A stretch of DNA of 64,000 nucleotides, taken from positions 27,118-91,117 of the forward strand of contig SCSN01000016.1 in NCBI GenBank assembly GCA_004322205.1, given 5' to 3'. Positions within the stretch are counted from its first letter, which is position 1; every line of letters starts with the position of its first letter. The position numbers and the translations under genes were made by a program. The stretch is from Patescibacteria group bacterium (lineage in GTDB: Bacteria; Patescibacteriota; Minisyncoccia; Phycocordibacterales; Zambryskibacteraceae). This document shows, in pieces, positions 9,112 through 27,167 of the stretch. The notes under the pieces were generated by a model, which saw only the letters and a list, made by a program, of their open reading frames with translations, was not told the DNA's origin and made no database searches.

Positions 9112-9154
9112 AACGGGCCGCGCGCAAGCACGACCCGCCCTCCACTCACCCGGC

Positions 9155-9778
9155 CTAGGCGGATTCCAAGCGGCTTCCGCCAGAGAGACTGCGAAAAGCC
9201 CTCTCCTGATAACGGTGCCTGACCCATGAGATTTCCTCTTCCGAGGCCCCATCCGCCTTCGCAAGCCTTGCCCAATCAGTGTAGGCCCCCCAAACAGCAG
9301 TTACCGGGGAATCGAACACTTCTTGAGGCAGAAGCTGATAGCCGAACTTCTCCAAAACCCACAGCACCTCATGGCGAAGGCGGGAGAGAATGCCGGGAAA
9401 ACGCATAGCCCCGCGGAAACCATTCCTCACCAAGATAAGCGCCCATAACAAAGTGAGGTGATCAACATCTGCTTGAGGCAGAGGTTCGTCGCGCCCATGA
9501 CGCCCTGTGGCTAAATTGCCGTTCTCGGATACCCTCTTGTTGTAGCGCGAACGAATCGAGAGCAGTCTTTCGCCCACTGGCCAAAGAAAAAACTGATCAG
9601 GATCAGCCCTCCTGAATTCCTTTCCGGTTCTTTCCCTGAAAAGCTCGAGGCGGAAAGCCAGCTCCTCCTCGAAAAGCGAGCGGGAAAGACCGTTTTTGGC
9701 GGGGAAAAACCCCATACCGGCTGCGATCCGAAGCAACAGGCGCGCCAGCTTCAAGACAAAACTAGGCTTGGCAGCCAC
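9155..9778 (-). CDS. hypothetical protein
   Basis: It is a 207-aa ORF with no recognised domain. Confidence 0.3.
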   Translation of the reverse strand: MAAKPSFVLKLARLLLRIAAGMGFFPAKNGLSRSLFEEELAFRLELFRERTGKEFRRADPDQFFLWPVGERLLSIRSRYNKRVSENGNLATGRHGRDEPLPQADVDHLTLLWALILVRNGFRGAMRFPGILSRLRHEVLWVLEKFGYQLLPQEVFDSPVTAVWGAYTDWARLAKADGASEEEISWVRHRYQERAFRSLSGGSRLESA

Positions 9779-9901
9779 AATATCCTCCTTGGGTAAAAAG
9801 TTCTTCTGTTGTTATCTTACTCAAAACGCGGGGGAGTTGTCTATGTATATTGGGCAAGTAAATTCCACCGATCTTTTGCCAACAGCAAGTCAGATATTTT
9901 T

Positions 9902-10300
9902 CTAAAGTTCTTGTAAAAATTTTCTCTCGGTCCAGCTTGCATCGCCCAATCTATAATTCCATGTTAATTCCTCTCCTAAATTTATATCAACAGAAGAAAT
10001 GGTCGCACCCTCACTGGTGCCGTTTTCTGCGTCTTCTGTGTTTGCTTGATCAGAGTGGTTAAAAAAACGCGCGTTATCAACGCACAGAATATACTTCTTT
10101 GTTTTGTTGTTCTGGTACGAGTAACCTTTAATAAAATTCCGAATGGTTTCGGGCATGGACACTAGCTCGCTTTCTCCGAATTTCAAGTCAATTCCAGGAG
10201 TAAATTCCCAAATTTTTGTCCCTTTAGGGATAAACTGGTCGGCAAAGAGACCGATACCATGTAATTTACTTAGCCCAATTTTTGTCTTCACTAGAAGCAT
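9902..10300 (-). CDS. SET-domain protein (putative lysine methyltransferase)
   Basis: GIGLFADQFIPKGTKIWEF...NARFFNHSDQANTE...GEELTWNY are the SET signature motifs. Confidence 0.6.
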   Translation of the reverse strand: MLLVKTKIGLSKLHGIGLFADQFIPKGTKIWEFTPGIDLKFGESELVSMPETIRNFIKGYSYQNNKTKKYILCVDNARFFNHSDQANTEDAENGTSEGATISSVDINLGEELTWNYRLGDASWTERKFLQEL

Positions 10301-10495
10301 TAAATATATTGTATTCTTTGCTTCACTTGTGTTTACACTGAACGAGCTTGCGAGTCGAAGTGTGCGCGGGAGAGGAATTGCACCTCCACGCCTTGCGGCA
10401 CAGGAACCTCAATCCTGCGTGGCTACTATTACACCACCCGCGCGTCTGACAAATTATATAAAAAGATAAAAAGAGAAGAGACTTTCAACACAGCG

Positions 10496-10936
10496 CTATT
10501 TTTGAGGCAAAGACCCCTCTGCCGCTATTTTTTCAGATTCCTTTTCTTTTGGCTCAATTTCAGGGATTTCTTCTTCCTCTGCCGACACGAACTGGATATT
10601 TCTCATCTGGCGCTTGATTTCTTTGGCCGCTTTCTTGCGAATGTGGTAGAGCTTGGCGCGGCGGACTTTTGAACGCTTCACAATTTCAACCTTATCAACA
10701 ACCGGTGAATATAGGGGAAAGATTTTCTCCACTCCTACTCCGCTTGCTAGTCTACGGACGGTGAAAGTTGCTCCCGGCTCTCTGCCGTGTTTAACAGCAA
10801 GCACCAACCCCTCAAACGATTGCAGGCGCGTTTTGCCTTTCTCTTGAATTTTCTGGGAGACGCGAACTGTGTCCCCCGCCTTGAGGTCGAGTTTCTGGCG
10901 CTCGGTAATATCAATGGGAGAAATTTTTATTGCCAC
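10496..10936 (-). CDS. rplS: 50S ribosomal protein L19 with C-terminal acidic extension
   Basis: GDTVRVSQKIQEKGKTRLQSFEGLVLAVKHGREPGATFTVRRLASGVGVEKIFPLYSPVVDKVEIVKRSKVRRAKLYHIR is the L19 pattern. Confidence 0.85.
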   Translation of the reverse strand: MAIKISPIDITERQKLDLKAGDTVRVSQKIQEKGKTRLQSFEGLVLAVKHGREPGATFTVRRLASGVGVEKIFPLYSPVVDKVEIVKRSKVRRAKLYHIRKKAAKEIKRQMRNIQFVSAEEEEIPEIEPKEKESEKIAAEGSLPQK

Positions 10937-10974
10937 GATTGAAAATATTAGAGCACCACTTTATCACACACCCC

Positions 10975-11724
10975 TTACGGAGGCAAATGAACCAAGCCAA
11001 GCTCTCTAGCGGCACTCTGAAAATCTGGCGGATGAGAAGCCGTCACTGTGACGAGAATCCTTTCAAGATTGCGGAAGGTGAGAGAATAGGCGTGAAGGGC
11101 AAGCCGTTTAAATCCGAGGAGAGGCGGGCGCTTGGGTGCATAGAGTTTGTCGCAGACAATCGGGTGGTCCATTGCTTTGAAATGAACACGGATTTGGTGC
11201 GTCCGCCCGGTCTTTGGCCGCGCCTCAACAAATGTCGCATCTTTACCTCTCCCGAGCACCCAGAAGTAAGTGGTCGCCTCGCGCAGAGCGCCTCGCGCTC
11301 CGCGCTCGGCGGAGCGTTTGCGAAAATCGCTTCTGCTCCTGCCAATGGGCAGATTTATTATCCCCTCATTATCCTTGAGTACTCCATAGACAAAGCAGTG
11401 ATAGGTCTTCTCTATCTCCCTGCCTTGAAACTGTTTTTTGAGAGCGGCGAATGCTTCCTTGTTTTTCGCCAAAACCAAAACACCCGATGTTTCCCGGTCT
11501 AGCCGATGCACCACACCCGGACGCGGTATCTCGCGAGCTATAGATCGTGAACCGTTAATCTTTAGCGGTTCGCCAACTGTTGCCGACTGTGGGTAGCGAG
11601 TTAGCATCCAGTCTGTAATATCCTCCTCCTTCCTTCTGCCATCCGAATGCACGACGAGCCCCGGCGGCTTGTTTATAACAACAATATCCTTGTCCTCATA
11701 TAGAACAGAGATCTTCTGAATCAT
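10975..11724 (-). CDS. RluA-family 23S rRNA pseudouridine synthase (RluD-like)
   Basis: HRLDRETSGVLVLAKN is the catalytic Asp motif, and there is an N-terminal S4-like region. Confidence 0.85.
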   Translation of the reverse strand: MIQKISVLYEDKDIVVINKPPGLVVHSDGRRKEEDITDWMLTRYPQSATVGEPLKINGSRSIAREIPRPGVVHRLDRETSGVLVLAKNKEAFAALKKQFQGREIEKTYHCFVYGVLKDNEGIINLPIGRSRSDFRKRSAERGARGALREATTYFWVLGRGKDATFVEARPKTGRTHQIRVHFKAMDHPIVCDKLYAPKRPPLLGFKRLALHAYSLTFRNLERILVTVTASHPPDFQSAARELGLVHLPP

Positions 11725-11726
11725 TG

Positions 11727-11809
11727 TGGGCGAGGGGAGATTTGAACTCCCACGGGCTTGCGCCCATAGCGCCCTGAACGCTACGTGTCTGCCATTTCAC
11801 CACTCGCCC
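11727..11809 (-). tRNA. tRNA-Leu (anticodon CAG)
   Basis: A manual cloverleaf fits: acceptor GGGCGAG/CTCGCCC, anticodon stem TAGCG/CGCTA, loop TTCAGGG, long variable arm and T-loop TTCAAAT. Confidence 0.8.
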
Positions 11810-11810
11810 G

Positions 11811-11842
11811 AGTGGGTGCGCGGTGAGAGATTCGAATCTTAC
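11811..11842 (-). other. tRNA 3'-half-like fragment (resembles the acceptor and T-arm of the adjacent tRNA-Val)
   Basis: ggtgcgcggtgagagattcgaatct matches ggtgcgcgctgagagatttgaactc of the tRNA-Val 3' end at about 22/26. No complete cloverleaf could be folded. Confidence 0.3.
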
Positions 11843-11939
11843 AGATTCTGTAGGCCTTTCGCTTCACACTCGTTTCGCTCGCGCGACAAGCTCAAGGCCC
11901 TCTCATCTCTCACGCAAGCAAAGCAGTTTACTTGCTAGC

Positions 11940-12013
11940 GCGGTGCGCGCTGAGAGATTTGAACTCCCGGCCTACTGAGTGTAAATCAGTCGCTCTAACC
12001 AACTGAGCTAAGC
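11940..12013 (-). tRNA. tRNA-Val (anticodon TAC)
   Basis: A manual cloverleaf fits: acceptor GCGCGCT/AGCGCGC, D-arm GCTC/GAGC, anticodon stem ACTGA/TCAGT and loop TTTACAC. Confidence 0.8.
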
Positions 12014-12098
12014 GCGCGTTGCAATACATTATCCTATCTTGTCTCGTGACTGCAAGTTTTTGTACTTCTTTCGGGTTTCTATTATAGTTCTTATCAAC

Positions 12099-12694: not shown

Positions 12695-12767
12695 GATAAA
12701 TCCACGCCCCCGTAGTTCAATGGACAGAACCGCGGACTTCTAAGCCGCTGATGTAAGTTCGATTCTT
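12695..12767 (+). tRNA. tRNA-Arg (anticodon TCT)
   Basis: Acceptor GCCCCCG/CGGGGGC, anticodon loop CTTCTAA and T-arm GTAAG-TTCGATT-CTTAC fit. Confidence 0.85.
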
Positions 12768-12797
12768 ACCGGGGGCGCAAAATTCGTAGTATAGTTA
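12765..12797 (+). repeat. 33-bp direct repeat X, copy 1 (gcgcaaaattcgtagtatagttaaaccacaaaa), starting in the last bases of tRNA-Arg
   Basis: It is identical to 14485-14517. Confidence 0.85.
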
Positions 12798-12813
12798 AAC
12801 CACAAAAGAACCC

Positions 12814-12844
12814 AAAGAAAAACATCGGCTCGAACCATATTTTA
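12814..12844 (+). repeat. recombinase-gene micro-remnant: aaagaaaaac fused to a reverse-complement copy of the 27-bp repeat (aaaaacatcggctcgaaccatatttta)
   Basis: It matches the reverse complement of 20605-20631 and 22026-22052 (one mismatch each) and also 13468-13493. Confidence 0.6.
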
Positions 12845-12889
12845 ATTTTGGGGGAAGAAAATTTTTTAATCCTTCTCTGATGATTACAA

Positions 12890-13339
12890 ATGACTTTACC
12901 TACACATGTATTAGCTGGACTAATAATTGGCAAAATAACAGGAGATTTTTCTACGGCAATCGCCGGTTCTCTGGTAATGGATTTAGACCATACTATTTCG
13001 TATTTTCGCCACGGAATTTTATTTAAACCTCGCCAATTATTTAAGGCAATATCTGACGAAGCAGACCCGTGGGGTGACCAAAGAAATTTTTTACACAGCA
13101 TTTTTAGTTGGGTTGTCATTTCTGTTGCGCTTTTAACAATTAATTTTAATTTTGGTTTAGTATTTTCCATAGCTTATTTTTTTCACTTAGTTTTTGACGC
13201 TTTGGATGGGGCTGATTTTTATCCATTTTTCCCTTTCAAAAAATTTGCGATAAAAGGGTTTGTAGAATATTACTCAAAACAAGAAATTATTTTTGACATT
13301 TTATTGATTCTCGTTTTTGTCGCTCTTTTTGTCATTTGA
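12890..13339 (+). CDS. YdjM-like membrane-bound metal-dependent hydrolase family protein
   Basis: MTLPTHVLAGLIIGKI...HLVFDALD gives a multi-TM protein with His/Asp motifs typical of PF04307. The assignment is moderate. Confidence 0.45.
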   Translation: MTLPTHVLAGLIIGKITGDFSTAIAGSLVMDLDHTISYFRHGILFKPRQLFKAISDEADPWGDQRNFLHSIFSWVVISVALLTINFNFGLVFSIAYFFHLVFDALDGADFYPFFPFKKFAIKGFVEYYSKQEIIFDILLILVFVALFVI

Positions 13340-13401
13340 TTCAGCTCCAATTTTTTGATAAAATCCGCTTGGTATTCGCTTCGCGAATTCTTGGATTAAA
13401 T

Positions 13402-13493
13402 GCCGCCAAAGAAAAACTTGAAATCGTTGCTTCGCTCTGCGAAGCCCAAACTGCCAAAGAACCTGAAAACAAATCGGCTCGAACCATATTTTG
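13402..13493 (+). pseudogene. internally deleted fragment of a large serine recombinase gene (codons about 30-55 joined to the 3'-end repeat)
   Basis: It translates AAKEKLEIVASLCEAQTAKEP, matching residues 31-53 of the intact recombinase at 21978. It is followed by aaacaaatcggctcgaaccatattttg, the reverse complement of the 27-bp repeat. Confidence 0.5.
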
Positions 13494-13634
13494 TAAGGGC
13501 AAAAGAAATTTTTTCATAAGGATTTTTGAAAACAGAAACTCGAAAGGGTTTCTGTTTTCAGTTGATTTTTATTGTTATTTCTGCTAGTTTGTCTATGGAA
13601 CCCCGACAACTAAACACAGAGAGGAGAGTTCTTT

Positions 13635-14270
13635 ATGACACAAGAAGCACTGATGACAGAGCTTCTTTCCATGCGAAAGCGAGCGGAACGAACGGCGCAG
13701 AGCATCGACCAAATCTCACGCAACCTTTCTTCCGAGCGTCAGACGCTCCGGCAGGTGGTCAAGGAATACGGAGCGAAGCGCGTCGAGCTCCTCAAGCAGG
13801 AACTTCAGGCGCGAGGGATGACCTGGTGCACCTGCTGCTCCGGGGCGATTCCCGAAAGCGAGTCTGAGCTTCTGTTCGTCGAAGGAGCTGAGGAACGCTC
13901 CGGTGGCTACGAGAATTCATGTTGGGGTTGCGAGCGGTTCTCGAAACTCCATCGAGTGTGCTCGGGCTGCCGCGACAAAGCACAAGATCGACATGGTACA
14001 CAGGGCCGCTACGACAACTTCAACAAGATTCAGGCATACTTCTACGCCTCTCGCGTAGAGAAGCGCGAGGGCGGCTACTACGCCCGCAAGTTCGGCAACT
14101 GGGTCAAGCTCGACGACGAGAACTGTAAGCTCGATGAGCCGTCGGGCCAACTAGTAGAGAGACTTGCGGAGGAGTGGAATCTCCCGCCACGAATCGAGGT
14201 CGAGCCGAAGTGGCCGAGCTCCGAGGGGAAGCTCGTCGTCCACGAGCGGATGCTGGCTGAAGCGGGTTAG
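13635..14270 (+). CDS. hypothetical Cys-rich protein (possible zinc-ribbon) in a GC-rich segment
   Basis: It is a 211-aa ORF with WCTCCSG...CWGCERF...CSGC. The segment 13.56-15.25 kb is noticeably more GC-rich than its surroundings. Confidence 0.4.
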   Translation: MTQEALMTELLSMRKRAERTAQSIDQISRNLSSERQTLRQVVKEYGAKRVELLKQELQARGMTWCTCCSGAIPESESELLFVEGAEERSGGYENSCWGCERFSKLHRVCSGCRDKAQDRHGTQGRYDNFNKIQAYFYASRVEKREGGYYARKFGNWVKLDDENCKLDEPSGQLVERLAEEWNLPPRIEVEPKWPSSEGKLVVHERMLAEAG

Positions 14271-14365
14271 CCATACGTCCCTAACAGAGGGTGTTCTGCC
14301 AAGTGCCGGACACCCTCATTTCTTTTTACAAAGAACATTTGTGCGTGCTTCGCACGCTAGAATTT

Positions 14366-14426
14366 GTATTCCGCCAAAGAAAAACTTAAAATTGTCAGTG
14401 TGCGCGGCGGAGCCGCTCATTTTTGG
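14366..14426 (+). repeat. about 60-bp direct repeat R1, copy 1 (gtattccgccaaagaaaaacttaaaattgtcagtgtgcgcggcggagccgc...)
   Basis: It is near-identical to 19037-19096. It covers codons about 31-38 of a recombinase (AKEKLKIV) followed by a non-recombinase sequence. Confidence 0.8.
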
Positions 14427-14484
14427 TGGGGGCTTCCTCGCCGCCTGCGGCGGCGAAATGCGTTCGGACTAATCCAAGAATACT

Positions 14485-14517
14485 GCGCAAAATTCGTAGT
14501 ATAGTTAAACCACAAAA
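14485..14517 (+). repeat. 33-bp direct repeat X, copy 2, followed by a perfect 12-bp palindrome (aaaacctgccgg/ccggcaggtttt)
   Basis: It is identical to 12765-12797, and the palindrome lies at 14513-14536. Confidence 0.85.
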
Positions 14518-15252
14518 CCTGCCGGCCGGCAGGTTTTGTGGTTTTGAGTTGACAGACTGACCAGAAATGTCAGAATAAAAAAAGAACATTCCACCGGGAG
14601 GTGTTGTGAAAAAGCTGATCTGGGGAACGGTTCTTTTTGTTTCCTCGCATGGGCAGAGCCGGTCCAGGCCCAAAAACTGATCAACAGGCACATACCCCAC
14701 TTCCTCACCAAAATAGCTACGGGAGTTGCGGCAACGGAAGGACTGAAGCTTTTTGGAGTCCCCCGCCCCAAGGCGGCGGTTCTCGGCGTGGTCGGCACGT
14801 GGGCCGCCTCGGTGGTGGTCTCCTGCATCCGCTGGTGCGGCAGTCGCGGCTATTCTCTGGTACCGGCGGCTTGCGACAAGGGAGCTGACCTGTTCGCCAC
14901 GACTCTGGTCGCAGTGCCGCTCAATGTCCGGTTGGGCCGGATAGGAAGGTTCGAGGTTATGGTCGGAGGAACTGGTCTTTACTTCCTCACCTTCGATCGG
15001 TGCGCCAGGCCCTGATCTTTCCTCGCCAAGCAAAAAGCACCCCGCACTCACGTGCGGGGTTTGCTCTTTTATGAGACATTGATCTCGTCTAGCGAATCTC
15101 GTACGTCACCGAAACCACAATGACTACCTCTTGGCTTCCCGACTGAAGCTCGGGTGTTCCCCCGCCCCCAAGGCCCAAGGGCACCGCCCGTTCCAGATAC
15201 TGAATCGGCGGGAAACCAGAATCGGACTCATTCAAAATTACTGCGTAAAAAC

Positions 15253-15591
15253 TTAGCGTGAAGGGTCCGGAAGTGATACCGGGCGCGTCTTGAGACTCTC
15301 GAGAATAGCTGCTCTTTCTTCAAAACGGGAAAGAGTTTGTCGGAGCAGATTCTCATCGATTGCCCCTTGCACTGCATCAGAGCCTTGCTTGATGACAAAA
15401 ACCTCTCCCTTACTCACCTTCACAAACAAGAGCAGGTTAAAAGCGACAACAAGAATAGTCATCAAAAGAGCAGAAAGGAGAACCAATCGCCAGTCGCGCG
15501 CCGCGCGCGTGGAAAGAGTTGGGAAATCTCGCCCCTGCAACTGAAACAAACTGATAATTTTCGAAAACGATAGACGCAGTTTCATAGTCAC
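15253..15591 (-). CDS. pilus-assembly-associated membrane protein (PilP-position ORF)
   Basis: It is a single-TM protein at the end of the pilMNO operon. It is called on context only. Confidence 0.3.
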   Translation of the reverse strand: MTMKLRLSFSKIISLFQLQGRDFPTLSTRAARDWRLVLLSALLMTILVVAFNLLLFVKVSKGEVFVIKQGSDAVQGAIDENLLRQTLSRFEERAAILESLKTRPVSLPDPSR

Positions 15592-16157
15592 TTGAGCTTG
15601 AGCACTGTAAAATCATAATACCCCTTCCAAAGCCTCCTGCCGCGAGCGCTATCGCTATCAAACAGCGGCTCCTTACCATCTTCCAGGGAGAAAATAACTT
15701 GATCCACCTCAACTCGATACGGGAGATGCTCGAGAACAGAGAGCAGTTCGGCGACCTCCGCCCAACTGCCAACCATCTCCACTTTAAGGCGCAAAAGTTC
15801 TTTGAAGTCGTCTTTGCTTTTTGTATCCGGCTCCACTGTCACCGCCCCGATCACCAGCGAGAGATCGTACTGGCGCCCAATGTTCTCCAGAAACTCGATG
15901 AAATGAGGTACACCATCGCGCGCCACAAAATATGAGTCGAGAGTAGCAATATTTGTGCTGTGCTGTCCCAAAGCGCGCTTTGCCGCCCGCAGGAACTCGT
16001 CATTTTTAATGTCCCGTTCCGCAGCATTCGCTAGAGCGTGGGCTTTTTCATTTACCTTTTTCACAATGTAGAAGAGAGTGCCGTAGGCGCCCCAAGCCAG
16101 CGCCGCCAAGACAGCGGTCAGAGCAAGGAGTTTTCTGATGTTTGAAAGGTGGTGCAT
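15588..16157 (-). CDS. pilO: type IV pilus assembly protein PilO-like
   Basis: It has an N-terminal TM region and a periplasmic domain and sits in the operon position after PilN. The start is trimmed to MHHLSNI so it abuts the PilN stop. Confidence 0.45.
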   Translation of the reverse strand: MHHLSNIRKLLALTAVLAALAWGAYGTLFYIVKKVNEKAHALANAAERDIKNDEFLRAAKRALGQHSTNIATLDSYFVARDGVPHFIEFLENIGRQYDLSLVIGAVTVEPDTKSKDDFKELLRLKVEMVGSWAEVAELLSVLEHLPYRVEVDQVIFSLEDGKEPLFDSDSARGRRLWKGYYDFTVLKLK

Positions 16158-16158
16158 G

Positions 16159-16689
16159 CTAGCGAACAGTAATCTGAATGGAGAAGCTGGCGTTCCGGTC
16201 TTTGGCAAAATCGGAGACTGGAATATTGACACGCCCAAACGATGGTTCGCTTTCAAGCAATTTCACAAACTGCGCCAGACTCTCCCGGTTTGCGGCAATC
16301 CCGGAGAACCTAAGCTCGTTGCCTCCCGCTTTTCGCTGGTACTCGAGAGAGCTCAAGCGGACAGATGAAATTCTCCTAGCAAGCAGACGTTCAAAGAGCG
16401 CCTCTGCCGACTGTGGGCTGGTGGTGGCAAGAGTCCGGATCTTGAGATTGGCGCTGGTGAGCTTGGTGTTGAGCTCATTGGCCTCCCGAAGAATGGTTGA
16501 ATGCCGCACTGCATCAATTCTGCCGGACACTTCCTTATAGCGAGAGTCCGACACTAAATACGACGGAACAAGAAAAATAAACGCCAAGGCGGCGGTCAGA
16601 GCAAGAAAGAGACAGACAAGAATCCCCACTCGAATGCGGTACTCCGCGAAGATGTGCTTTTTCTCTGCGTCAGGAAGGAGGTTAAACAT
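16159..16689 (-). CDS. pilN: type IV pilus assembly protein PilN
   Basis: The start MFNLLPDAEKK is the conserved PilN N-terminus, and there is a single TM region. Confidence 0.6.
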   Translation of the reverse strand: MFNLLPDAEKKHIFAEYRIRVGILVCLFLALTAALAFIFLVPSYLVSDSRYKEVSGRIDAVRHSTILREANELNTKLTSANLKIRTLATTSPQSAEALFERLLARRISSVRLSSLEYQRKAGGNELRFSGIAANRESLAQFVKLLESEPSFGRVNIPVSDFAKDRNASFSIQITVR

Positions 16690-16701
16690 GGTGGTGCGTG
16701 G

Positions 16702-17691
16702 TCAGAGGTGTGAGCGATACGAAAGAGCGGCGCCGATTACCGGGGCATATTCAAAAGCCTCTTCGCGGGAAAGGTCGGGTACAAATTGCTCAAGAGAAAA
16801 GACATTCTCCCAGACATCGGCAACCTTAAGCGGCAAGCCCAGAGGCGTCAGGGCAGCAGCCAGAGCGGGGTGATCGGCAAATTTCCCGGAGAGAATGAGC
16901 GCTTGCGGCTGCCCTCTCCGGTCACTCTCATCCTCATTTTCATTGTGCCAGTAGGAAATAACTTTCCTTGCCTCGCTTACGAGCTCTCCCGCCCACGGAA
17001 ATTCTCCGCTCTCCAAAGCGTTGGCCGAAAGTGGAATCGTGGCGGAAAAATGAACAGCGTTCTTGCGGACAACATATACCCCGACCTTCCGGGAAAAGAT
17101 GTGGATGACAGCATAGACAGCCGGATCATCGTGAGCCACCACTGCTTTGACTACCGCTTGCGACTCAATCTCAAAATGAAAGGGCGAGAGCTCAGCCGAG
17201 CGATAGACATCGAGGAACGAGCGGACAACGTGCTCGGGCACTACAGAGACCGCTACCTCAAATGGCTCCCGCCCCTCGCCCCCATCGCGAAGAACAGCAA
17301 AATCAAAAACCGCCTCCGAAAGTGAGAGGGGGACATTTTCCTCAATCGTAAACTCCACCGCGGTGCGGATGTCTCGTTCTCCGGCGCGGGAGATTTTAGT
17401 TTGAAAAAGATAGGCTTTCTCGTCCGGCAGAACGCAGCGAATATAGTGAAGGTCAAAGCGCTTGCGAAGCGAAGTCAGGGCGGTTGTGAGCTCTTGAGGT
17501 TTTTTAATTTCGCCTGAGACCAAGGTGCCTTCGGGTAGGGTCTCTTCGCCGTATCGTTTGAGAACTATATGGTCACCGACGTGCTGAAATTCAACACACC
17601 TTGCATGAGTATCTTCTAGAACTAGTCCTGGAGAGGGCATTTCCAAAAACTTCGGTGTCGGAAAAAAGTCAAAAAAGCTGCGGCTGGGCAT
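16702..17691 (-). CDS. pilM: type IV pilus assembly ATPase-fold protein PilM
   Basis: It has an actin-like fold with a PilM-like length and motifs and leads the pilMNO arrangement. Confidence 0.7.
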   Translation of the reverse strand: MPSRSFFDFFPTPKFLEMPSPGLVLEDTHARCVEFQHVGDHIVLKRYGEETLPEGTLVSGEIKKPQELTTALTSLRKRFDLHYIRCVLPDEKAYLFQTKISRAGERDIRTAVEFTIEENVPLSLSEAVFDFAVLRDGGEGREPFEVAVSVVPEHVVRSFLDVYRSAELSPFHFEIESQAVVKAVVAHDDPAVYAVIHIFSRKVGVYVVRKNAVHFSATIPLSANALESGEFPWAGELVSEARKVISYWHNENEDESDRRGQPQALILSGKFADHPALAAALTPLGLPLKVADVWENVFSLEQFVPDLSREEAFEYAPVIGAALSYRSHL

Positions 17692-17719
17692 AAGGGAAAT
17701 TATATCATTTCAGCGCGCG

Positions 17720-18046
17720 CTAACGAATTAGCATTCCAGAAGGAATTGCACTGCCGACTTCAAGAAGAGAGAGTGATTGTTTGGAGGCGGCGGCCAGAAT
17801 CATCGCTTCACTTATCTCTCCCAAAATCTGGCGCGGTTCAAGATTCGCGGCAAAGGCACAACGCTTGCCAACTAGTACAAAAGGGTCAAGAAAAAAGGGT
17901 GCGATGCCAGCAATAACCTGCCGCGGCCGCTCCTCGCCCAAGTCGACGGAGAGCTTGAGAAGTTTCTCCGACCCTTCCAGGCGCTCCGCCGAGAGAATTT
18001 CTCCAACCCGGATTTCTATTTTTTTGAAATCATCGTGGGTTACCAT
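17720..18046 (-). CDS. tRNA-binding (EMAP/CsaA-like) domain protein
   Basis: KIEIRVGEILSAERLEGSEKLLKLSVDLGEERPRQVIAGIA...NLEPRQILGEISEAMIL is the OB-fold tRNA-binding domain pattern. Confidence 0.7.
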   Translation of the reverse strand: MVTHDDFKKIEIRVGEILSAERLEGSEKLLKLSVDLGEERPRQVIAGIAPFFLDPFVLVGKRCAFAANLEPRQILGEISEAMILAAASKQSLSLLEVGSAIPSGMLIR

Positions 18047-18428
18047 TTCTGTTCTTGCGGTCCAAAAAACTGCGCAGAATTAGGGCGGCTGCCGAAGCGT
18101 CGAGAGATTCTTGTTTGCCCTGTATGCGCTCGGCTTCGATGCTCGTAAAAAACTCCGGCTCATAGTAAACCGGCAGACTGATTTTTCTTTCCAGTTCATT
18201 TTTAAACTTCTCAATCTCGGCAGTAATGGGGTTTTCTCCGCCCGCAAGTGTGCGTGACTCACCAAGAACAATTGCCCCGACACCTTCCTTTACACAAAGG
18301 GCAGCAATGTCATGAGTGAGGTGCGCTGGATTAGATAGAGTGGTTTTGGGAAAGGCAAGCTTTCCCTCTTCGTCAGAGACGGCAATGCCAACTCTTTTGC
18401 TGCCGTAATCAATTCCCAAAAATTTCAC
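18030..18428 (-). CDS. ruvX: Holliday-junction resolvase-like / pre-16S rRNA nuclease YqgF (RuvX)
   Basis: MKFLGIDYGSKRVGIAVSDEEGKLAFP is the YqgF N-terminus. Confidence 0.8.
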   Translation of the reverse strand: MKFLGIDYGSKRVGIAVSDEEGKLAFPKTTLSNPAHLTHDIAALCVKEGVGAIVLGESRTLAGGENPITAEIEKFKNELERKISLPVYYEPEFFTSIEAERIQGKQESLDASAAALILRSFLDRKNRNGNPR

Positions 18429-18475
18429 TCCTCTTAATATATCACCGTTTGCCTCCGCTTGGCCGCTCGTCTATT

Positions 18476-18727
18476 ATGAAGCCTATGGAGTCTTTCCTGC
18501 CGCAGATCGCTTTAGTGAATTCTTACCTTGAAGCTCACCCCGCCCTCACCATTTTTCTTGTCGTCTGGTCGCTTTTCTGGAAAGCCCAGGCTCTTTGGCG
18601 TTCGGCGCAGTTGTCTCACCGCTGGTGGTTTGTTATTATCCTGGTCTTAAACACCCTTGGCCTTCTGGAAATCTACTATCTCTACTTTGTCTCTCGCAAG
18701 TATTCAGTCCAGGTTGAAGAAGTCTAG
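18476..18727 (+). CDS. small hypothetical membrane protein
   Basis: It is an ORF with two predicted TM helices. Confidence 0.3.
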   Translation: MKPMESFLPQIALVNSYLEAHPALTIFLVVWSLFWKAQALWRSAQLSHRWWFVIILVLNTLGLLEIYYLYFVSRKYSVQVEEV

Positions 18728-18816
18728 GTGGGGTGGCAGAGTGGTTGAATGCACCGGTCTTGAAAACCGGAGTGTCCGAAAGGGCACCGTGAGTTCGAAT
18801 CTCACCCCCACCGCCA
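18727..18816 (+). tRNA. tRNA-Ser (anticodon TGA), CCA encoded
   Basis: Acceptor GGTGGGG/CCCCACC, anticodon stem CCGGT/ACCGG, loop CTTGAAA, long variable arm and a 3' GCCA fit. Confidence 0.85.
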
Positions 18817-18840
18817 GAAAGGATTTTGCAAATGCGAGTT

Positions 18841-18864
18841 GCCCGCCTCGCTTCGCTCGGCGGC
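18841..18864 (+). repeat. 23-bp GC-rich motif gccgcc-TCGCT-TCGCT-cggcggc (copy 1 of 3)
   Basis: It also occurs at 20537-20559, and in reverse complement with two 1-nt indels at 35963-35985. Confidence 0.7.
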
Positions 18865-18947
18865 TAATTTGTATGGGATTTTTGGCGAAAAAGAAATGCT
18901 TTTATCAATAAGGGCAAAAGAAATTTTTAATCATTTTTTGAAATCAT

Positions 18948-19060
18948 ATGAGATACGTAATTTACACAAGAAAATCGAGTGAAAGTGAGGAACGACAGAT
19001 TTTGAGTATTGAGGCGCAGCTCGCAGAGCTGCAAGAGTATTCCGCCAAAGAAAAACTTAA
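18948..19060 (+). pseudogene. N-terminal fragment (36 codons) of a large serine recombinase, then diverges into repeat R1
   Basis: MRYVIYTRKSSESEERQILSIEAQLAELQEYSAKEKLKIV matches the resolvase-domain N-terminus of the intact gene at 21978 (MRYVIYARKSTEDDDRQVLSIEAQLVELHEFAAKEKLEIV). After codon 36 it continues into the sequence shared with 14366-14426. Confidence 0.55.
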
Positions 19061-19215
19061 AATTGTCAGTGTGCGCGGCGGAGCCGCACATTTTTGCTCG
19101 CCTCACCCGAGCCGCGCGGAGCGCGGCGAGGGAATGCAGTTCGAGCTATTTCTAAAATACACCGCCAGTTAGGAAATCAGCTTTGAAATTTGACTTTGTG
19201 CTAAACTAGTAGTTA

Positions 19216-19674
19216 ATGACGGTAATAGCAGAACTTCTAGTCGCGCTTCTTGGGCTAGCGGGTTTTCTGCTCGCCAATTACATCCGCGCCACTAAGCGAA
19301 GACAGACACCGCTTGTTTGTCCAATCCACGGAAGCTGCGAAGTTGTTGTCCGAAGCCAATTCTCCGCTCTGCTTGGCATCCCGCTTGAATACTGGGGGAT
19401 GGCGTACTACTCTCTCATCACTCTCGCCTACTTTCTTTTTGCTCTCTCCCCTACGGCCGCCCCGGCGATTGTTTCTTACTTTATTTTGAGCCTCACTGCC
19501 ACCGCCTTTCTCTTCTCTCTCTACCTTACCGCCATTCAGGCAGTCGTTCTCAAACACTGGTGCACTTGGTGTCTCTGCTCGGCAGCGCTCTGCACTGTGA
19601 TTTTTTCACTGGTAATCTACGTCTCCGATCTTTCGCTCGCCGCTCTCACTGGCTCGTGGCTCTCACTCTTCTAA
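19216..19674 (+). CDS. vitamin K epoxide reductase (VKOR) family protein
   Basis: It is a multi-TM protein with the CTWC active-site motif (KHWCTWCL) and an additional Cys pair. Confidence 0.7.
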   Translation: MTVIAELLVALLGLAGFLLANYIRATKRRQTPLVCPIHGSCEVVVRSQFSALLGIPLEYWGMAYYSLITLAYFLFALSPTAAPAIVSYFILSLTATAFLFSLYLTAIQAVVLKHWCTWCLCSAALCTVIFSLVIYVSDLSLAALTGSWLSLF

Positions 19675-19723
19675 CTTCTGCGTGATACAATATTTACGAT
19701 GGAAGCGGGCAACTAATACAATG

Positions 19724-20185
19724 CGCAAACAAAATCCTCTTCACTGGCAAGCCCACGAATACGAGGAGCGGGTTCGCGGTGCCGACTGGTTTTGGGCAGT
19801 CGGCATTCTGACGGTGGCTATTTCCGTGACTGCCGTTATTCTCGGAAACATTCTCTTTGCTCTCGTCATTCTCCTCAGCGGCTTCTCACTCTCGCTCTAC
19901 GCCGCGCGCAAGCCGCGGCTCGTTGATATTGTTCTAAGCGACAAGGGGGTGCGTATTGACAACTACTTCTACCCTTACCACGCCCTCGAATCATTCTGGG
20001 TGGATGAACACAGCTCCTCGCCCAAGGCTCTTATCAAATCACAGAAACTTTTCATGCCCTACATCATCGTGCCGCTTGTTGAGGTGAACCCAGAGTGGGT
20101 GCGTCACTACCTTTCCCGGCATCTGCCGGAAATCTTCCATAGCGAATCTGTCTTTCATAAGCTGATGGATCATTTGGGATTCTAA
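19724..20185 (+). CDS. hypothetical membrane protein
   Basis: It is an ORF with two TM helices. The start is trimmed to MRKQNPLHW. Confidence 0.3.
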   Translation, partial: RKQNPLHWQAHEYEERVRGADWFWAVGILTVAISVTAVILGNILFALVILLSGFSLSLYAARKPRLVDIVLSDKGVRIDNYFYPYHALESFWVDEHSSSPKALIKSQKLFMPYIIVPLVEVNPEWVRHYLSRHLPEIFHSESVFHKLMDHLGF

Positions 20186-20319
20186 AGGCTTGAAGGTTCA
20201 ACCTTTAAGCTGTAAGCTCTAGTCCTCACCCCTCGTCGTTCAACTGGCCCGCCTACGGCAAAAAATATGAGTTCAGTTTGTTTTCAAGGGCAGGTAGGAC
20301 ATGCGAGATTGTTCCCGAT

Positions 20320-21978
20320 TTACCAAAGAACGAAGTGATTGGTTGTAAATCGCAATCCCGTTAAAAGTTCGCCCCTGTAGTTCAATGGATAGAATGCGAG
20401 ATTGCGGATCTCGTGATTCAGGTTCGAATCCTGACGGGGGCGCAGAATTAAGGACAAACTTTTTTGGGACGGAGCTTGTAATCGGGGTTCGATTCCTCGC
20501 GGGGGGGACACTTTAGAAAAGCGCAAGTCAGAGGAAGCCGCCTCGCTTCGCTCGGCGGCCATTTCGTATTGAATTTTGGGGGCAAAAACGAATTGGCGGT
20601 TTCGCAAAATATGGTTCGCGCCGATGTTTTTAAGAAATGTTGTCATTTTGGGATAATTATTTTCGGAAAGCAATTTTTCGGCTTGATTTAAGGATAAAAC
20701 GAACTCACGAGCCGGTTCGAGCCACGACAGGCCTTTCTGCTCAAAATCAACAACCTTCTCCTGTAAACGGACTTTTTCGGCCACCAATTTTTCTTTTTTG
20801 GCGGCGTATTCTGCTTGTGTAAGCGCGTTGTCTAAATATACATCAAGCAGTTTTTGGAGCTTCATTTCGTTTTGGGTTAATTTGCTTTTCAAAATATCAA
20901 CTCCAGCTTGAAATTCTTGTTTCGCGTTCTCCTGTTCTTTTGCTAACGCCGCCAAAACTTTTTCAGTGTCGTGGCTCGACAAAGAAACTTTTTGAAGAAA
21001 GGTTTTGATTTGCGCGGCTAACTCGTTTTCTTGGATATAGTGCTTTTCTTGGCATACGCCTTTCTTTTTCGTACATCGGTAGTAGGTATAAATGCCACCG
21101 TTGCCTTTGGCATATTGCGCGGTTATGGAGCAATCGCATGAGGCGCATTTCATCAAGCCGAGAAAAGCAAAGTGGTGTTTCTTTACTTCCTGAACCCTGC
21201 CGCGCTTCGCCATCACTTCTTGGCACAAATCAAAAAGTTTCTTTGAGATTAACGGCTCGTGTGTTCCCTCAAATATCTCACTTCGGTATCGCATGAGTCC
21301 GAAGTAGAATGGATTTTGTAGAAGGTGCCGAACATTGCTTACGGAAATTTCTTTGCCGAGATTTCCGCGCAAGCCGTTTTCCTTGCACCAATTTGCGAGA
21401 GAAAGAAATGTGTAGCTTCCGGTTGAATACATCTCAAAAAGTTTTCTGACCTTAGGTGCTTTTTCGGTATCAACATCAATACCTCGGGTCTTAGGGTTAT
21501 TCAAGTAGCCAATCGGAGCCCAACTTGGCCACACTCCATTTCGGATTTTTTGCCGCAAACCCCTTTTTACATTCTCTCGCAGATTGTCCACATAGTATTT
21601 TGATTGTCCAAAAGCAATATTCAGCATAAAAAGTCCTTGCGGTGTCGGTTCACACCAAAAAGTCGGAAATTTGAGGGAACGAATCAAGCCGCGGTCTATC
21701 ATGTGGATTATCTTTCCTCCGTCCACGGAATTTCTCGCAAGACGATCCGGGTGCCATGATAGTATTCCGTCAGCTTTTCCTTTTTCCAAAAATGACAACA
21801 TTTCTGCGAATTTCATTCGCCCGGGTTCTTTTGCGGTTTTCGCCTCTTGGAAAGAGGCGACAATTTCAAGTTTTTCTTTGGCGGCAAATTCATGAAGCTC
21901 AACGAGTTGAGCTTCAATAGAAAGTACTTGCCTGTCGTCATCTTCCGTTGATTTGCGAGCGTAGATTACATATCGCAT
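20320..21978 (-). CDS. large serine recombinase (integrase/transposase-like); true 3' end uncertain because the ORF reads through the repeat and the tRNA genes
   Basis: It has the resolvase catalytic domain (YARKST...DRQ...), a recombinase domain and a zinc-ribbon (CASCDCS...YYRC) followed by a coiled-coil. The last about 95 codons translate the tRNA-Arg and partial-tRNA region (…PRGIEPR…). Confidence 0.8.
   Translation of the reverse strand: MRYVIYARKSTEDDDRQVLSIEAQLVELHEFAAKEKLEIVASFQEAKTAKEPGRMKFAEMLSFLEKGKADGILSWHPDRLARNSVDGGKIIHMIDRGLIRSLKFPTFWCEPTPQGLFMLNIAFGQSKYYVDNLRENVKRGLRQKIRNGVWPSWAPIGYLNNPKTRGIDVDTEKAPKVRKLFEMYSTGSYTFLSLANWCKENGLRGNLGKEISVSNVRHLLQNPFYFGLMRYRSEIFEGTHEPLISKKLFDLCQEVMAKRGRVQEVKKHHFAFLGLMKCASCDCSITAQYAKGNGGIYTYYRCTKKKGVCQEKHYIQENELAAQIKTFLQKVSLSSHDTEKVLAALAKEQENAKQEFQAGVDILKSKLTQNEMKLQKLLDVYLDNALTQAEYAAKKEKLVAEKVRLQEKVVDFEQKGLSWLEPAREFVLSLNQAEKLLSENNYPKMTTFLKNIGANHILRNRQFVFAPKIQYEMAAERSEAASSDLRFSKVSPPRGIEPRLQAPSQKSLSLILRPRQDSNLNHEIRNLAFYPLNYRGELLTGLRFTTNHFVLW
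20371..20442 (+). tRNA. tRNA-Arg (anticodon reads GCG, unusual)
   Basis: Acceptor GCCCCTG/CGGGGGC, anticodon stem CGAGA/TCTCG and loop TTGCGGA fit. A GCG anticodon is atypical for bacteria, so it should be re-checked with a tRNA finder. Confidence 0.7.
20460..20512 (+). other. partial tRNA-like element (T-arm plus acceptor-like, no D-arm)
   Basis: gggacggagcttgtaatcggggttcgattcctcgcggggggg contains a GGTTCGATTCC T-loop but no complete cloverleaf. It is a possible att-site remnant. Confidence 0.3.
20537..20559 (+). repeat. 23-bp GC-rich motif copy 2
   Basis: gccgcctcgcttcgctcggcggc. Confidence 0.7.
20605..20631 (+). repeat. 27-bp direct repeat DR2 copy (caaaatatggttcgcgccgatgttttt), inside the 3' coding end of the recombinase
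   Basis: It is identical to 22026-22052. On the minus strand it encodes ...KNIGANHIL... Confidence 0.85.
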
Positions 21979-22025
21979 AGTTTTGTTGGATTAAATTGAT
22001 TAAAAATTTTTCCGTCCCCCAATAT

Positions 22026-22052
22026 CAAAATATGGTTCGCGCCGATGTTTTT
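22026..22052 (+). repeat. 27-bp direct repeat DR2 copy, 48 bp upstream of the recombinase start
   Basis: It is identical to 20605-20631. Confidence 0.85.
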
Positions 22053-22238
22053 CTCAGGGTTCTTTTGCGGTTTTTATCGGTGCGGCTCCGCCGGATTTCG
22101 GATTTTTCGCGGGGGGCTTTCCTCGCCGCCTGCGGCGGCGAAAACGGTTCGCACTATTTCAAGAATACTGGACACTTTAGGAAAACAAAAACATCCTATG
22201 TTCCCAAGAAACATAGGATGTTTTTGTTCGCAGAGAGG

Positions 22239-27165: not shown

Positions 27166-27167
27166 AT

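Follow-up and report, generated by a model that had tools for sequence, protein, structure and literature searches.

The window, a 64,000-nt stretch of DNA from a member of the Patescibacteria, carries tRNA genes for tRNA-Arg(TCT) (12706-12778; also matched by Rfam tRNA), tRNA-Ser(TGA) (18727-18816) and tRNA-Arg(GCG) (20371-20443), all identified with ARAGORN on the plus strand. The 3′ part of a tRNA-Arg(TCT)-like pseudo-tRNA lies on the same strand at 20479-20516 and can be compared with the targeted tRNAs of two other loci (L001 and L026). A minus-strand ORF at 20320-21978 encodes a 552-aa large serine recombinase with the Pfam domains Resolvase, Recombinase and Zn_ribbon_recom. The family-conserved part of the ORF spans 20518-21978, and its last ~65 codons are a read-through into the antisense pseudo-tRNA and tRNA-Arg(GCG). 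A first-pass annotation had ended the gene at about 20600, but in homologues ~32 residues beyond that point are still conserved (RNRQFVFAPK..AERSEA..), to about 20518.

The repeats and recombinase fragments listed in that annotation are all present in the sequence, with small coordinate corrections. A 27-bp motif (motif A) occurs in exact copies at 20605-20631 and 22026-22052 and, in the opposite orientation and with 2-3 mismatches each, at 12818-12844 and 13467-13493; no match was expected from shuffled sequences. The exact copies do bracket the recombinase gene as reported, but the upstream copy is itself part of a junction of recombinase codons 47-52 with the motif that is found at three sites (12797-12844, 13447-13493 and 22026-22074). 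An exact 33-bp direct repeat occupies 12775-12807 and 14485-14517, its first copy having been placed 10 nt too early, at 12765. What had been called a 60-bp repeat at 14366 and 19037 extends over 79 nt at 87% identity (14366-14444 and 19037-19115), the first ~60 nt being nearly identical. The N-terminal fragment starting at 18948 comprises codons 1-40 and ends at 19067, rather than 36 codons ending at 19060, and the supposed mini-copy at 13400-13493 consists of codons 31-52 plus the 27-bp motif. It is highly probable that this apparent mosaic represents three insertions of one compact modular element family (units 1 to 3), each at the 3′ end of a tRNA gene, as the earlier attribution of the fragments to serine-recombinase mobile elements inserting at such ends had correctly anticipated. 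All three are non-canonical derivatives.

Unit 3 (20517-22169), the intact recombinase unit, has the order U-leader-recombinase-B. It is not inserted at tRNA-Arg(GCG), which is a bystander; the actual junction is at the pseudo-tRNA. Block B (20517-20604, minus strand) encodes the conserved C-terminal ~30 residues, and its complement forms a hairpin with a T-run just 3′ of the tRNA. Motif A inside the gene (20605-20631, minus) encodes KNIGANHIL (codons 449-457) with almost no synonymous variation across the family. A hairpin at codons 41-46 (21841-21858, minus; GCCTCTTtccAAGAGGC) separates two near-invariant stretches, codons 31-40 and 47-52, and a comparison of 49 genes shows compensatory variants of its stem, some of which alter amino acids. 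In addition, an inverted repeat at codons 58-65 (21782-21805, minus) pairs with one at codons 441-448 (20633-20656), with 90% of positions paired and three compensatory pairs. Synonymous-site variation is largely lost in codons 31-40, motif A and these paired repeats. Directly 5′ of the recombinase lies a type I leader (21979-22074, minus) composed of block C (21979-22025), motif A (22026-22052) and codons 47-52 (22057-22074), in flipped orientation relative to the canonical form. The distal end is block U (22075-22169, minus), 85% identical to the U block of locus L021. The direct repeat GGACACTTTAG marks the ends of the unit at 20506-20516, where it forms the end of the pseudo-tRNA, and at 22170-22180. 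On the plus strand the right copy is followed by a perfect 19-bp hairpin (22184-22228), probably the tRNA's native terminator. With both ends intact, unit 3 is possibly still mobile. The 27-bp repeats were considered as ends of the integrated element and rejected; the ends are the tRNA 3′ end and block U.

Unit 1 (12808-14484), at tRNA-Arg(TCT), is a two-cassette unit without a recombinase, and all of its features lie on the plus strand. The left 33-bp copy (12775-12807) comprises the final 4 nt of the tRNA and 29 nt of native downstream sequence and ends in AAACCACAAAA, which overlaps recombinase codons 47-50. It is followed by a type I cargo leader (12808-12889) consisting of a remnant of codons 50-52 (12808-12817), motif A (12818-12844) and block C (12845-12889); this leader was seen 5′ of cargo genes in more than 20 loci. 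Cargo gene 1 (12890-13339) encodes a 149-aa YdjM-family membrane protein (PF04307, E = 1.4e-10). An inter-cassette joint of the tRNA-Ser subfamily type (13400-13525) contains codons 31-52 with the hairpin GCTTCGC..GCGAAGC (13400-13463), motif A (13467-13493) and a type II block C (13494-13525). Cargo gene 2 (13635-14270) is GC-rich and encodes a 211-aa protein for which a Pfam search returned no family. The cargo trailer (14366-14484) joins codons 31-40 (14366-14396) to an inverted block U (14397-14484), with a terminator-like inner hairpin, GCGGCGGAGCCGC, and a T-run. The right 33-bp copy (14485-14517, within 14485-14544) then runs into the tRNA's native 19-bp perfect terminator hairpin (14507-14544). 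The 33-bp repeat was rejected as an attachment-site duplication: its inner end coincides with 11 nt of microhomology shared by the terminator stem of the tRNA (AAACCACAAAA) and codons 47-50 (AAACCGCAAAA). Unit 1 appears to have kept two cargo cassettes and lost the recombinase and the tRNA-proximal end, and would for that reason be fixed in place.

Unit 2 (18817-19159, plus strand) is a 343-bp remnant of a tRNA-Ser-subfamily element at tRNA-Ser. It consists of an inverted B block (18817-18908) with a terminator-like hairpin at 18848-18863, a type II block C (18909-18947), recombinase codons 1-40 (18948-19067) and an inverted U block (19068-19159), and its ends are marked by the direct repeat CACCGCCA at 18809-18816, the last 8 nt of the tRNA, and 19160-19167. 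A deletion between two copies of codons 31-40 could have produced it.

The element consists of a large serine recombinase gene and a swappable one-gene cargo unit made from pieces of that gene. As a rule, a canonical member is about 2.3-3 kb long and has two modules, E1 and E2, side by side. E1 runs from an inverted B through block C, the recombinase gene, motif A and block B to the tRNA; its B blocks are ~100-nt inverted repeats, one copy of which codes for the last ~30 recombinase residues, and the recombinase ORF, lacking its own stop codon, terminates within the antisense tRNA. E2 consists of U, a leader (codons 47-52, the 27-bp motif and block C), one cargo gene that changes between genomes, codons 31-40 and the inverted U, the trailer comprising these codons and a terminator-like hairpin; its U blocks are 93-nt inverted repeats. 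Blocks U and B are GC-rich, and block C is promoter-like, with no match in a sigma-70 consensus scan. Cargo genes encode a symporter, methyltransferases, Exo_endo_phos, a Na/Ca exchanger, HAD, PD40, bPH_2, HNH, Metallophos and YdjM proteins. Inverted copies are 97-98% identical within one element and 82-90% between elements. The same module order was found in ~30-40 loci from unrelated genomes of different CPR lineages. Homologues are 74-92% identical. Since fragment boundaries and order are identical in these genomes, the fragments are inherited building blocks of a conserved architecture and constant components of both the cargo module and the leader preceding the recombinase. The element is small, and its family is common in the CPR/Patescibacteria and apparently undescribed; no description was found in the searchable literature.

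The tRNA lies antisense at a fixed distance of ~94 nt after motif A in 60 of 79 GTDB loci. The main subfamily targets tRNA genes for Arg, Leu, Lys, Gly, Ile, Val, Tyr, Phe, Ala and Glu, a subfamily at 58-60% identity targets tRNA-Ser only, and one at 52% targets Trp. Insertion is exactly at the tRNA 3′ end, where the element supplies A73-CCA; in about 55 of the 60 targeted tRNAs the terminal sequence is GCACCA or CCGCCA, and only ~25 of the 77 untargeted tRNAs of the same loci encode CCA. The junctions read B+TGGTGC+tRNA next to the tRNA, B+TGGTGCA+U between modules and unconserved flank+GTGCA+U at the far end. At L008 (tRNA-Gly) and L009 (tRNA-Arg) the same element was found, with identity beginning at GTGCA-U and ending at B-TGGTGC; the two loci are 100% identical in E2 and in the outer 70 nt of each B copy, and only 78-94% in the recombinase body. 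The distance between an invariant CGAAC and TGGTGC is 13 nt in the tRNA arm and 18 nt in the U arm. In serine integrases, such a 5-bp shift separates attB from attP half-sites. These observations suggest that the B-TGGTGCA-U junction acts as attP and is recombined by the large serine recombinase with the tRNA 3′ end as attB, with a crossover that would fall within a few shared bases, most consistently tRNA G71-C72. The element would thereby swap the tRNA's 3′ tail for A73-CCA and set the hairpin and T-run of the B complement behind the tRNA. We infer the catalytic role of the recombinase solely from where it lies and which domains it has. Being palindromic, a GC core would not set orientation, and one locus (L036) has AC in place of the expected GC. 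The presumed attP arms, at the B and U ends, are dissimilar to each other, which is unusual among serine integrases. Neither an excised circle nor an empty site nor same-locus polymorphism was observed: a test for terminal overlap found none, metagenome searches gave no matches, and a look-up of the window proteins found them absent from the records.

Simple attP × attB integration does not explain the strong DNA-level conservation of motif A, codons 31-40 and 47-52, and the hairpin. The repeated 20-100-nt blocks act as joints for the inversion, deletion or exchange of modules, and events of this kind can account for the origin of all three window copies from the canonical form. Reshuffling of modules at repeated joints is documented between genomes: end points of deletions and inversions between family members (L033, L080, L091-L094 and the window) fall exactly at motif A and the codon 31-40 and 47-52 blocks, in line with the first-pass suggestion that the recombinase gene's own sequences act as recombination joints. 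E1 occurs alone, as a unit bounded by inverted repeats, in L013 and is flipped in L080; cargo is fused at codon 31 in L033. In L091-94 the order is recombinase-A-C-cargo, with a stop/start overlap (ATGA) and a recombinase 29 residues shorter at its end. Degenerate recombinase copies (e.g., L012, L062, L091) and other cassette arrays (e.g., L006) were also found.

Four other readings were weighed. Under the one favored previously, independent rounds of integration, excision and decay left random recombinase gene fragments near tRNAs. Unit 2 is a real deletion remnant, unit 1 lacks a recombinase and degenerate copies exist at L012, L062 and L091; however, end points (codons 31-40, 47-52 and 449-457) and order are identical in ~30-40 unrelated genomes, which independent decay would not predict, boundaries do not vary from locus to locus, and the fragments border intact, variable cargo genes, so that we regard this history as highly improbable. 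The annotation's alternative, a MITE-like family descended from an insertion sequence with a serine recombinase, is correct in that the cargo module is non-autonomous and bounded by inverted repeats: E2 has 93-nt terminal inverted repeats, no recombinase and internally deleted recombinase sequence inside, and E1 alone forms a similarly bounded unit in L013. The modules are not miniature, however; they measure 0.9-1.6 kb, each has an intact, variable protein gene with a leader and terminator of its own, they are located at tRNA ends instead of being dispersed, they are cargo modules and not miniature non-coding elements, and the match to IS607-type transposases scored 26 bits against a cut-off of 110. 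As a separate explanation it is distinctly unlikely, and it is largely subsumed in the modular element family.

A DNA-inversion switch, in which inverted repeats (C/C around 244 bp, A/A around 1.6 kb, B/B around the recombinase) flip and toggle recombinase or cargo expression or change the recombinase C-terminus, would account for inverted copies that are 97-100% identical within elements, for E1 in both orientations (canonical and L080), for the flipped leader in the window, and for L091-94, where the recombinase stops 29 residues early, overlapping the cargo ATG. We consider it very unlikely, given that the recombinase converges on the tRNA in 60 of 60 tRNA-adjacent GTDB loci and that alternative states occur in different genomes only, never at one locus; frequent switching is therefore not indicated. 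It is also doubtful that the element is a serine-recombinase cassette platform, in which the hairpin with codons 31-40/47-52 and motif A form secondary recombination sites, recognized by the enzyme, through which promoter-gene-terminator cassettes are captured, exchanged and arrayed site-specifically, as in integrons. Each cassette has one gene and constant borders, the two-cassette array in the window is joined by intact codons 31-52, A and C (with further arrays, as at L006), block conservation at the DNA level within the gene is extreme, with compensatory hairpin changes overriding the protein sequence, motif A holds TCGAACC at the 13-nt spacing of the tRNA arm, and deletions and inversions stop exactly at these blocks. 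Yet the junctions flank the hairpin and do not split it, unlike a serine-recombinase crossover site, the two bases 5′ of motif A are unconserved, a search for an empty U|U palindrome found none, and all rearrangements seen are equally explicable as RecA-type events between 20-100-nt repeats.

Compared with known systems, the modular element family shares with phage large serine integrases (A118/LI, Bxb1 and phiC31 type) the Resolvase, Recombinase and zinc-ribbon order, the N-terminal motif YARKS10T, a distant match to the DNA-binding region of A118 integrase (E = 1e-5), the presumed attP × attB logic with a short shared core, and the 5-nt shift of a conserved motif between element and target arms. 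It differs in lacking a phage and a recombination directionality factor gene, in its size (1.7-3 kb for the whole element), in targeting the 3′ ends of many different tRNA genes, in an ORF without its own stop that crosses the junction, in its 93-100-nt terminal inverted repeats and in using part copies of the recombinase gene as module borders. In serine-recombinase transposons and SCC, a DNA segment moves through a circular form with a 2-bp core, and the large serine recombinase is sufficient for this. Tn4451 (TnpX), Tn5397 (TndX) and SCC (CcrAB/C) likewise use large serine recombinases, and weak NCBIfam matches to Ccr and XisF were found, far under the family cut-offs (88 vs. 900 bits and 92 vs. 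375). The known elements exceed the present ones in size, are not targeted to tRNA ends and have neither long inverted repeats nor a cassette design. SSV-type integrases of archaeal fuselloviruses target tRNA genes, and their attachment site is linked to the recombinase ORF in such a way that this ORF is altered or split at the junction. The elements described here resemble these systems in their tRNA targets and in a junction affecting the recombinase ORF, but SSV-type integrases are tyrosine recombinases of archaeal viruses. The E2 order, codons 47-52, A-C and codons 31-40, resembles what would result from opening a circularized recombinase gene at an internal point, and no intact permuted recombinase gene was found in this family.

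Tycheposons, the tRNA-targeting cargo elements of Prochlorococcus, use tyrosine recombinases in 474 of 501 cases, have replication or packaging modules and leave partial-tRNA repeats (bioRxiv 10.1101/2020.12.28.424599). The present elements are similar in tRNA gene integration, cargo genes, and tandem arrays and degraded remnants beside the tRNA; they differ in repeating only 4-11 nt, in their large serine recombinase and in a one-gene cargo held in a stereotyped cassette. As in integrons, a recombinase gene stands beside one-gene cassettes with constant, hairpin-containing borders that can form arrays. Integrons, however, have the tyrosine recombinase IntI, attC sites and a single common promoter, whereas here the recombinase is of the serine type, each cassette has a leader and a terminator-like hairpin of its own, and the borders are copied from the recombinase coding sequence.

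Analysis of the window with ARAGORN identified three plus-strand tRNA genes, tRNA-Arg(TCT) (12706-12778), tRNA-Ser(TGA) (18727-18816) and tRNA-Arg(GCG) (20371-20443), together with a minus-strand ORF (21978->20320) that encodes a 552-aa protein. The translation contains a resolvase catalytic domain (PF00239; residues 4-150; E = 1.6e-22) with the nucleophilic-serine motif YARKS(10)T, followed, above cut-off, by a Recombinase domain (PF07508; E = 5.4e-18) and a zinc ribbon (PF13408; E = 3.3e-07); the enzyme is a large serine recombinase (LSR) by domain content. Its relationship to characterised serine recombinases is only distant: the A118 integrase matched at E = 1e-5, and XisF and Ccr models scored far under their cut-offs. 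The IS607 transposase model (NCBIfam NF033518) gave 26 bits against a cut-off of 110. Protein searches returned full-length homologues with 74-92% identity, nearly all from Patescibacteria/CPR assemblies. Conservation among them extended ~32 residues past a 27-bp motif (AAAAACATCGGCGCGAACCATATTTTG), through KNIGSNHIL-RNRQFVFAPKIEYKLVAERSEA...FPxWC, beyond which the tails diverged (ESNPH, DSNL, etc.) into translations of antisense tRNA T-arms. The gene therefore extends to about 20518. The first-pass annotation had the recombinase frame running on through a tRNA, which is real and is explained by a gene that lacks its own stop codon, so that translation continues into the downstream tRNA.

Scanning GTDB with a single genome for each species yielded 79 loci, in 60 of which an antisense tRNA started ~94 nt past the 27-bp motif. 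Target tRNAs of the main subfamily were Arg, Leu, Lys, Gly, Ile, Val, Tyr, Phe, Ala and Glu; a subfamily at 58-60% identity targeted tRNA-Ser only, and another at 52% identity targeted tRNA-Trp. Short modules were mapped by blastn-short, and three loci were read completely. Four repeated blocks were recognized: the 27-bp motif itself, at codons 449-457 (A); the final ~95 nt of the recombinase gene (B); ~30 nt immediately 5′ of the ATG (C); and a GC-rich block of 93 nt (U). On the recombinase strand, the canonical order was flank, U, inverted codons 31-40, an opposite-strand cargo gene, inverted C, inverted A, inverted codons 47-52, inverted U, TGCACCA and inverted B, followed by C, codons 1-448, A, B, TGGTGC and the antisense tRNA. 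The element thus consists of a recombinase module flanked by inverted copies of B (E1) and a module with a single cargo gene flanked by inverted copies of U (E2). The leader of E2 is made of codons 47-52, A and C, and its trailer of codons 31-40 and the inner hairpin of U; conservation of the leader reached ...TTTTTTAATCAT, with the cargo ATG directly after it in several loci. Pieces of the recombinase gene that had been taken for independent debris are instead the constant borders of the cargo module, the same across loci. The architecture is conserved and the cargo varies by locus: a sodium:solute symporter, methyltransferases, an endonuclease/exonuclease/phosphatase protein, a Na/Ca exchanger, a HAD hydrolase, a PD40 propeller, a bPH_2 protein, an HNH nuclease and a metallophosphatase were found. 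Each element carried the recombinase and one unrelated cargo gene, with no directionality factor and no phage genes. Some otherwise intact recombinase genes (L024, L030; protein P0049) were missing most of the in-frame 27-bp motif (FLKN|RNREF) and retained its inverted leader copy upstream. On contigs encoding the homologue P0040 (L082; 4170-4955), ARAGORN called no tRNA after the recombinase, and a further ORF ~500 nt downstream resembled an IS110-type transposase by eye; possible explanations are a pseudo-site and a later insertion.

The family is specific for tRNA ends. In a comparison of junctions across ~25 loci, the tRNA-side junction read B + TGGTGC + tRNA, the internal joint B + TGGTGCA + U, and the far-side junction an unconserved flank + (xx)GTGCA + U. 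A GCACCA end (CCGCCA in the Ser subfamily) was found in about 55 of the 60 targeted tRNAs. Of the 77 untargeted tRNAs at these loci, only ~25 encoded CCA, and many ended at A73-C74; A73-CCA is thus supplied by the element. The crossover was placed within the GCAC of the tRNA 3′ end, in a GC register that fits all loci except L036, and the recombinase probably catalyses integration at this GC core. In the tRNA-Arg(TCT) unit of the window, a 33-bp repeat keeps the native site and the junction is compatible with a G71-C72 crossover. Block A fits the spacing of a mimic of the tRNA arm at the GC core, but its presumed core dinucleotide was unconserved, and we rejected this role. An invariant CGAAC lies 13 nt past TGGTGC in the tRNA arm (T-loop) and 18 nt past it in the U arm. 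In serine integrases, attB and attP half-sites differ in the position of the zinc-ribbon motif, which is shifted by 5 bp; by analogy, the spacing of CGAAC is a lead, not proof, towards an attB/attP signature. Both the complement of B, located 3′ of the tRNA, and, behind each cargo gene, the inner end of U consist of a hairpin and a T-run and were flagged by a simple terminator scan; both would serve as terminators. Block C is a putative promoter by its position and was not called by a sigma-70 consensus scan. In an Rfam scan of 12-23 kb, the three tRNAs alone passed; U, B and a hairpin at codons 41-46 of the recombinase gene matched no known RNA family.

Evidence for movement came from two species' genomes (L008 and L009) in which the same composite was found at tRNA-Gly(CCC) and tRNA-Arg(TCG), respectively, with identity beginning at GTGCA-U and ending at B-TGGTGC. 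The composite therefore moves between tRNAs. Between the two, E2 was 100% identical, as were the outermost ~70 nt of each B copy, whereas the recombinase body was only 78-94% identical, indicating module exchange via recombination inside B. Inverted copies were 97-98% identical within one element versus 82-90% between elements. Several loci equalled the canonical form with an inversion or deletion ending at repeated blocks: L013 contained E1 alone; in L080 (protein P0082) E1 was flipped, and the recombinase read via B-TGGTGCA-U into the leader; L091-L094, from four samples, had the order recombinase-A-C-cargo, in which the cargo ATG overlaps the stop codon of the recombinase, i.e., the flipped form without the segment between two direct A copies; and in L033 the cargo was fused at codon 31 of a recombinase without codons 1-30. 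Modules are thus exchanged and rearranged at the repeated blocks. The left flanks of L008 (1-713) and L009 (26-738) were homologous (87%), with right-hand tRNAs Gly-CCC and Arg-TCG, respectively, which suggests that chromosome rearrangement is mediated by element copies at different tRNAs.

Either enzyme catalysis or ordinary homologous recombination could have produced the rearrangements at blocks A and C and at codons 31-40 and 47-52. A fold-back assembly artefact does not account for the recombinase-A-C-cargo contigs, since the downstream A-C differs from the upstream copy and the same join occurred in four samples. Frequent flip-flop of E1 through the B repeats was not supported, as a single orientation was found in all 60 tRNA-adjacent GTDB loci. 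The L080 contig was considered as a possible circle and showed no terminal overlap; it represents instead a chromosomal arrangement with flipped E1. Metagenome scans for the 33-bp repeat of the window (occupied or empty site) and for an empty U|U palindrome gave 0 matches each, and an exact look-up found neither the recombinase nor the YdjM protein of the window on record; neither an excised circle nor an empty site was seen in the L080 overlap test, these scans or the look-ups.

Every repeat described in the first-pass annotation was recovered by our repeat search with slightly corrected coordinates, and the 27-bp motif occurred four times in the 64 kb versus 0 times in shuffled sequences. 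The repeats resolve into three units. Unit 3 (20517-22169, minus strand) has the order U, codons 47-52, A, C, recombinase, A, B and is bordered by GGACACTTTAG at 20506-20516 and 22170-22180. It adjoins the 3′ part of a tRNA-Arg(TCT)-like pseudo-tRNA, not tRNA-Arg(GCG), and its identical 27-bp direct repeats are the leader copy and the gene copy of A. These repeats could be the ends of a 1421-bp recombinase-only circle, but no 'U-leader-A-B' empty site was seen; more simply, the arrangement equals a composite with flipped E1 from which recombination between the two C blocks dropped the cargo module. Both outer junctions of unit 3 are intact and its gene is 91-92% identical to that of L001/P0002, so the unit may still be mobile. 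Within 20444-20516, the junction tRNA is a 3′ fragment only, which resembles the tRNA-Arg(TCT) of L026 and lies 35 nt past the intact tRNA-Arg(GCG), with an intact tRNA-Arg(TCT) at 12706; the fragment may have been brought in by the element or may be a decayed duplicate gene.

Unit 1 (12808-14484) consists of a type I leader, a YdjM gene, an intact block of codons 31-52, A and C of the tRNA-Ser subfamily type, a 211-aa ORF, codons 31-40 and inverted U, to the right of which are the last 4 nt of the tRNA and native flank. At its left border, the tRNA terminator stem (AAACCACAAAA) matches codons 47-50 (AAACCGCAAAA), and the 33-bp repeat is accordingly read as a by-product of microhomology. Unit 1 is best read as the product of a microhomology event that would have removed E1 and U, fixing two cargo genes in place. 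Unit 2 (18817-19159), flanked by CACCGCCA, has the order inverted B, type II C, recombinase codons 1-40 and inverted U, which is the remnant that deletion between copies of codons 31-40 would leave of a composite with flipped E1. The previously described 60-bp repeat is real; it is the junction of codons 31-40 with the inner U hairpin that units 1 and 2 have in common. Just upstream of these units, four minus-strand tRNAs (His, Leu-GAG, Leu-CAG and Val-TAC; 8431-12017) were all free of family modules by module mapping. Further downstream, an AT-rich stretch (GC 0.32 at 27001-28000) starts at tRNA-Lys(TTT) (27095-27165), whose 3′ end is overlapped by an ORF (27141-27998) with a weak LAGLIDADG_3 match (E = 2.5e-4, just below cut-off); the region 27095-27998 is possibly a further insertion at a tRNA, though of another kind.

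In a codon alignment of 49 recombinase genes, synonymous codon entropy was ~1.2-1.5 across most of the gene, 0.24-0.30 at codons 31-40 and 0.16-0.37 at motif A. Other minima occurred at codons 54-62, 245-250, 326-332 and 415-419; a second GGCTCGAACC lies at codons 415-419. The stem of the hairpin at codons 41-46 varied in a compensatory manner (GCTTCC/GGAAGC, GCCTCT/AGAGGC, GCCTCG/CGAGGC, GCTTCG/CGAAGC), with substitutions that change the protein (FQ, LC, FH) between invariant flanks. This hairpin is an unlikely classical crossover site, given that junctions flank its 17 nt and do not split it. Codons 58-63 paired with codons 441-447 (90% paired, three compensatory pairs) and codons 245-250 with codons 325-330 (96% paired). 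In the window, these form nested inverted repeats at 20633-20656/21782-21805 (codons 58-65 with 441-448) and 20995-21015/21223-21243; both were kept in the 49 homologues, with synonymous change suppressed and some compensatory pairs. Taken as a whole, the alignment shows that selection acts on the DNA or RNA of the recombinase gene beyond the protein, and the constrained segments are concrete candidates for extra recombination or regulatory sites. They are also the basis for a reading that we regard as improbable, namely that the 27-bp motif and the hairpin with its neighbouring codons 31-40/47-52, as copied from the recombinase gene, function as secondary recombination sites of an integron-like, tRNA-docked platform on which a large serine recombinase captures and exchanges genes. 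If so, CPR bacteria with reduced genomes would gain a dedicated means to swap single, ready-to-express genes, and the permuted block order would reflect an ancestral element whose recombinase gene enclosed the attachment site.

The genomes of CPR/Patescibacteria are tiny, and few mobile elements have been recognised in them. For these bacteria, a very compact, abundant element that delivers single, ready-to-express genes to tRNA loci would be a main route by which genes are gained and genomes rearranged; L008 and L009 exemplify the rearrangement, as the element links their homologous left flanks to different tRNAs. The design is unusual among serine recombinases in that the target tRNA completes the ORF; in addition, the element changes the 3′ end of the tRNA so that CCA is encoded and would provide the tRNA terminator, its inverted repeats are long and near-identical, and its module borders consist of recombinase coding sequence. 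As a distinct clade with natural, conserved targets (tRNA genes), these recombinases are of interest as practical tools in genome engineering.

No description of this CPR element family was found in the literature searched, the coverage of which was incomplete. Phage-type serine integrase systems have a separate directionality factor and phage genes, neither of which occurs in these elements. IS607-family insertion sequences encode a small serine transposase, and the window recombinase falls outside the IS607 type. The MITE-like family offered as an alternative in the first-pass annotation would consist of short, non-coding units with terminal inverted repeats; the units here share inverted repeats, but each carries an intact cargo ORF. 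Integrons employ the tyrosine recombinase IntI with attI and attC, whereas here a serine recombinase is present and the cassette borders are recombinase-derived blocks. The nearest concept is that of tycheposons, which are tRNA-targeting cargo elements mostly based on tyrosine recombinases (bioRxiv 10.1101/2020.12.28.424599). Like them, the elements described here adjoin tRNA genes and carry cargo, but they possess a serine recombinase in place of the tycheposon-clade tyrosine recombinase and lack replication or packaging hallmarks. The family is a serine-recombinase integrative element whose bipartite, cassette-bearing design is distinctive.
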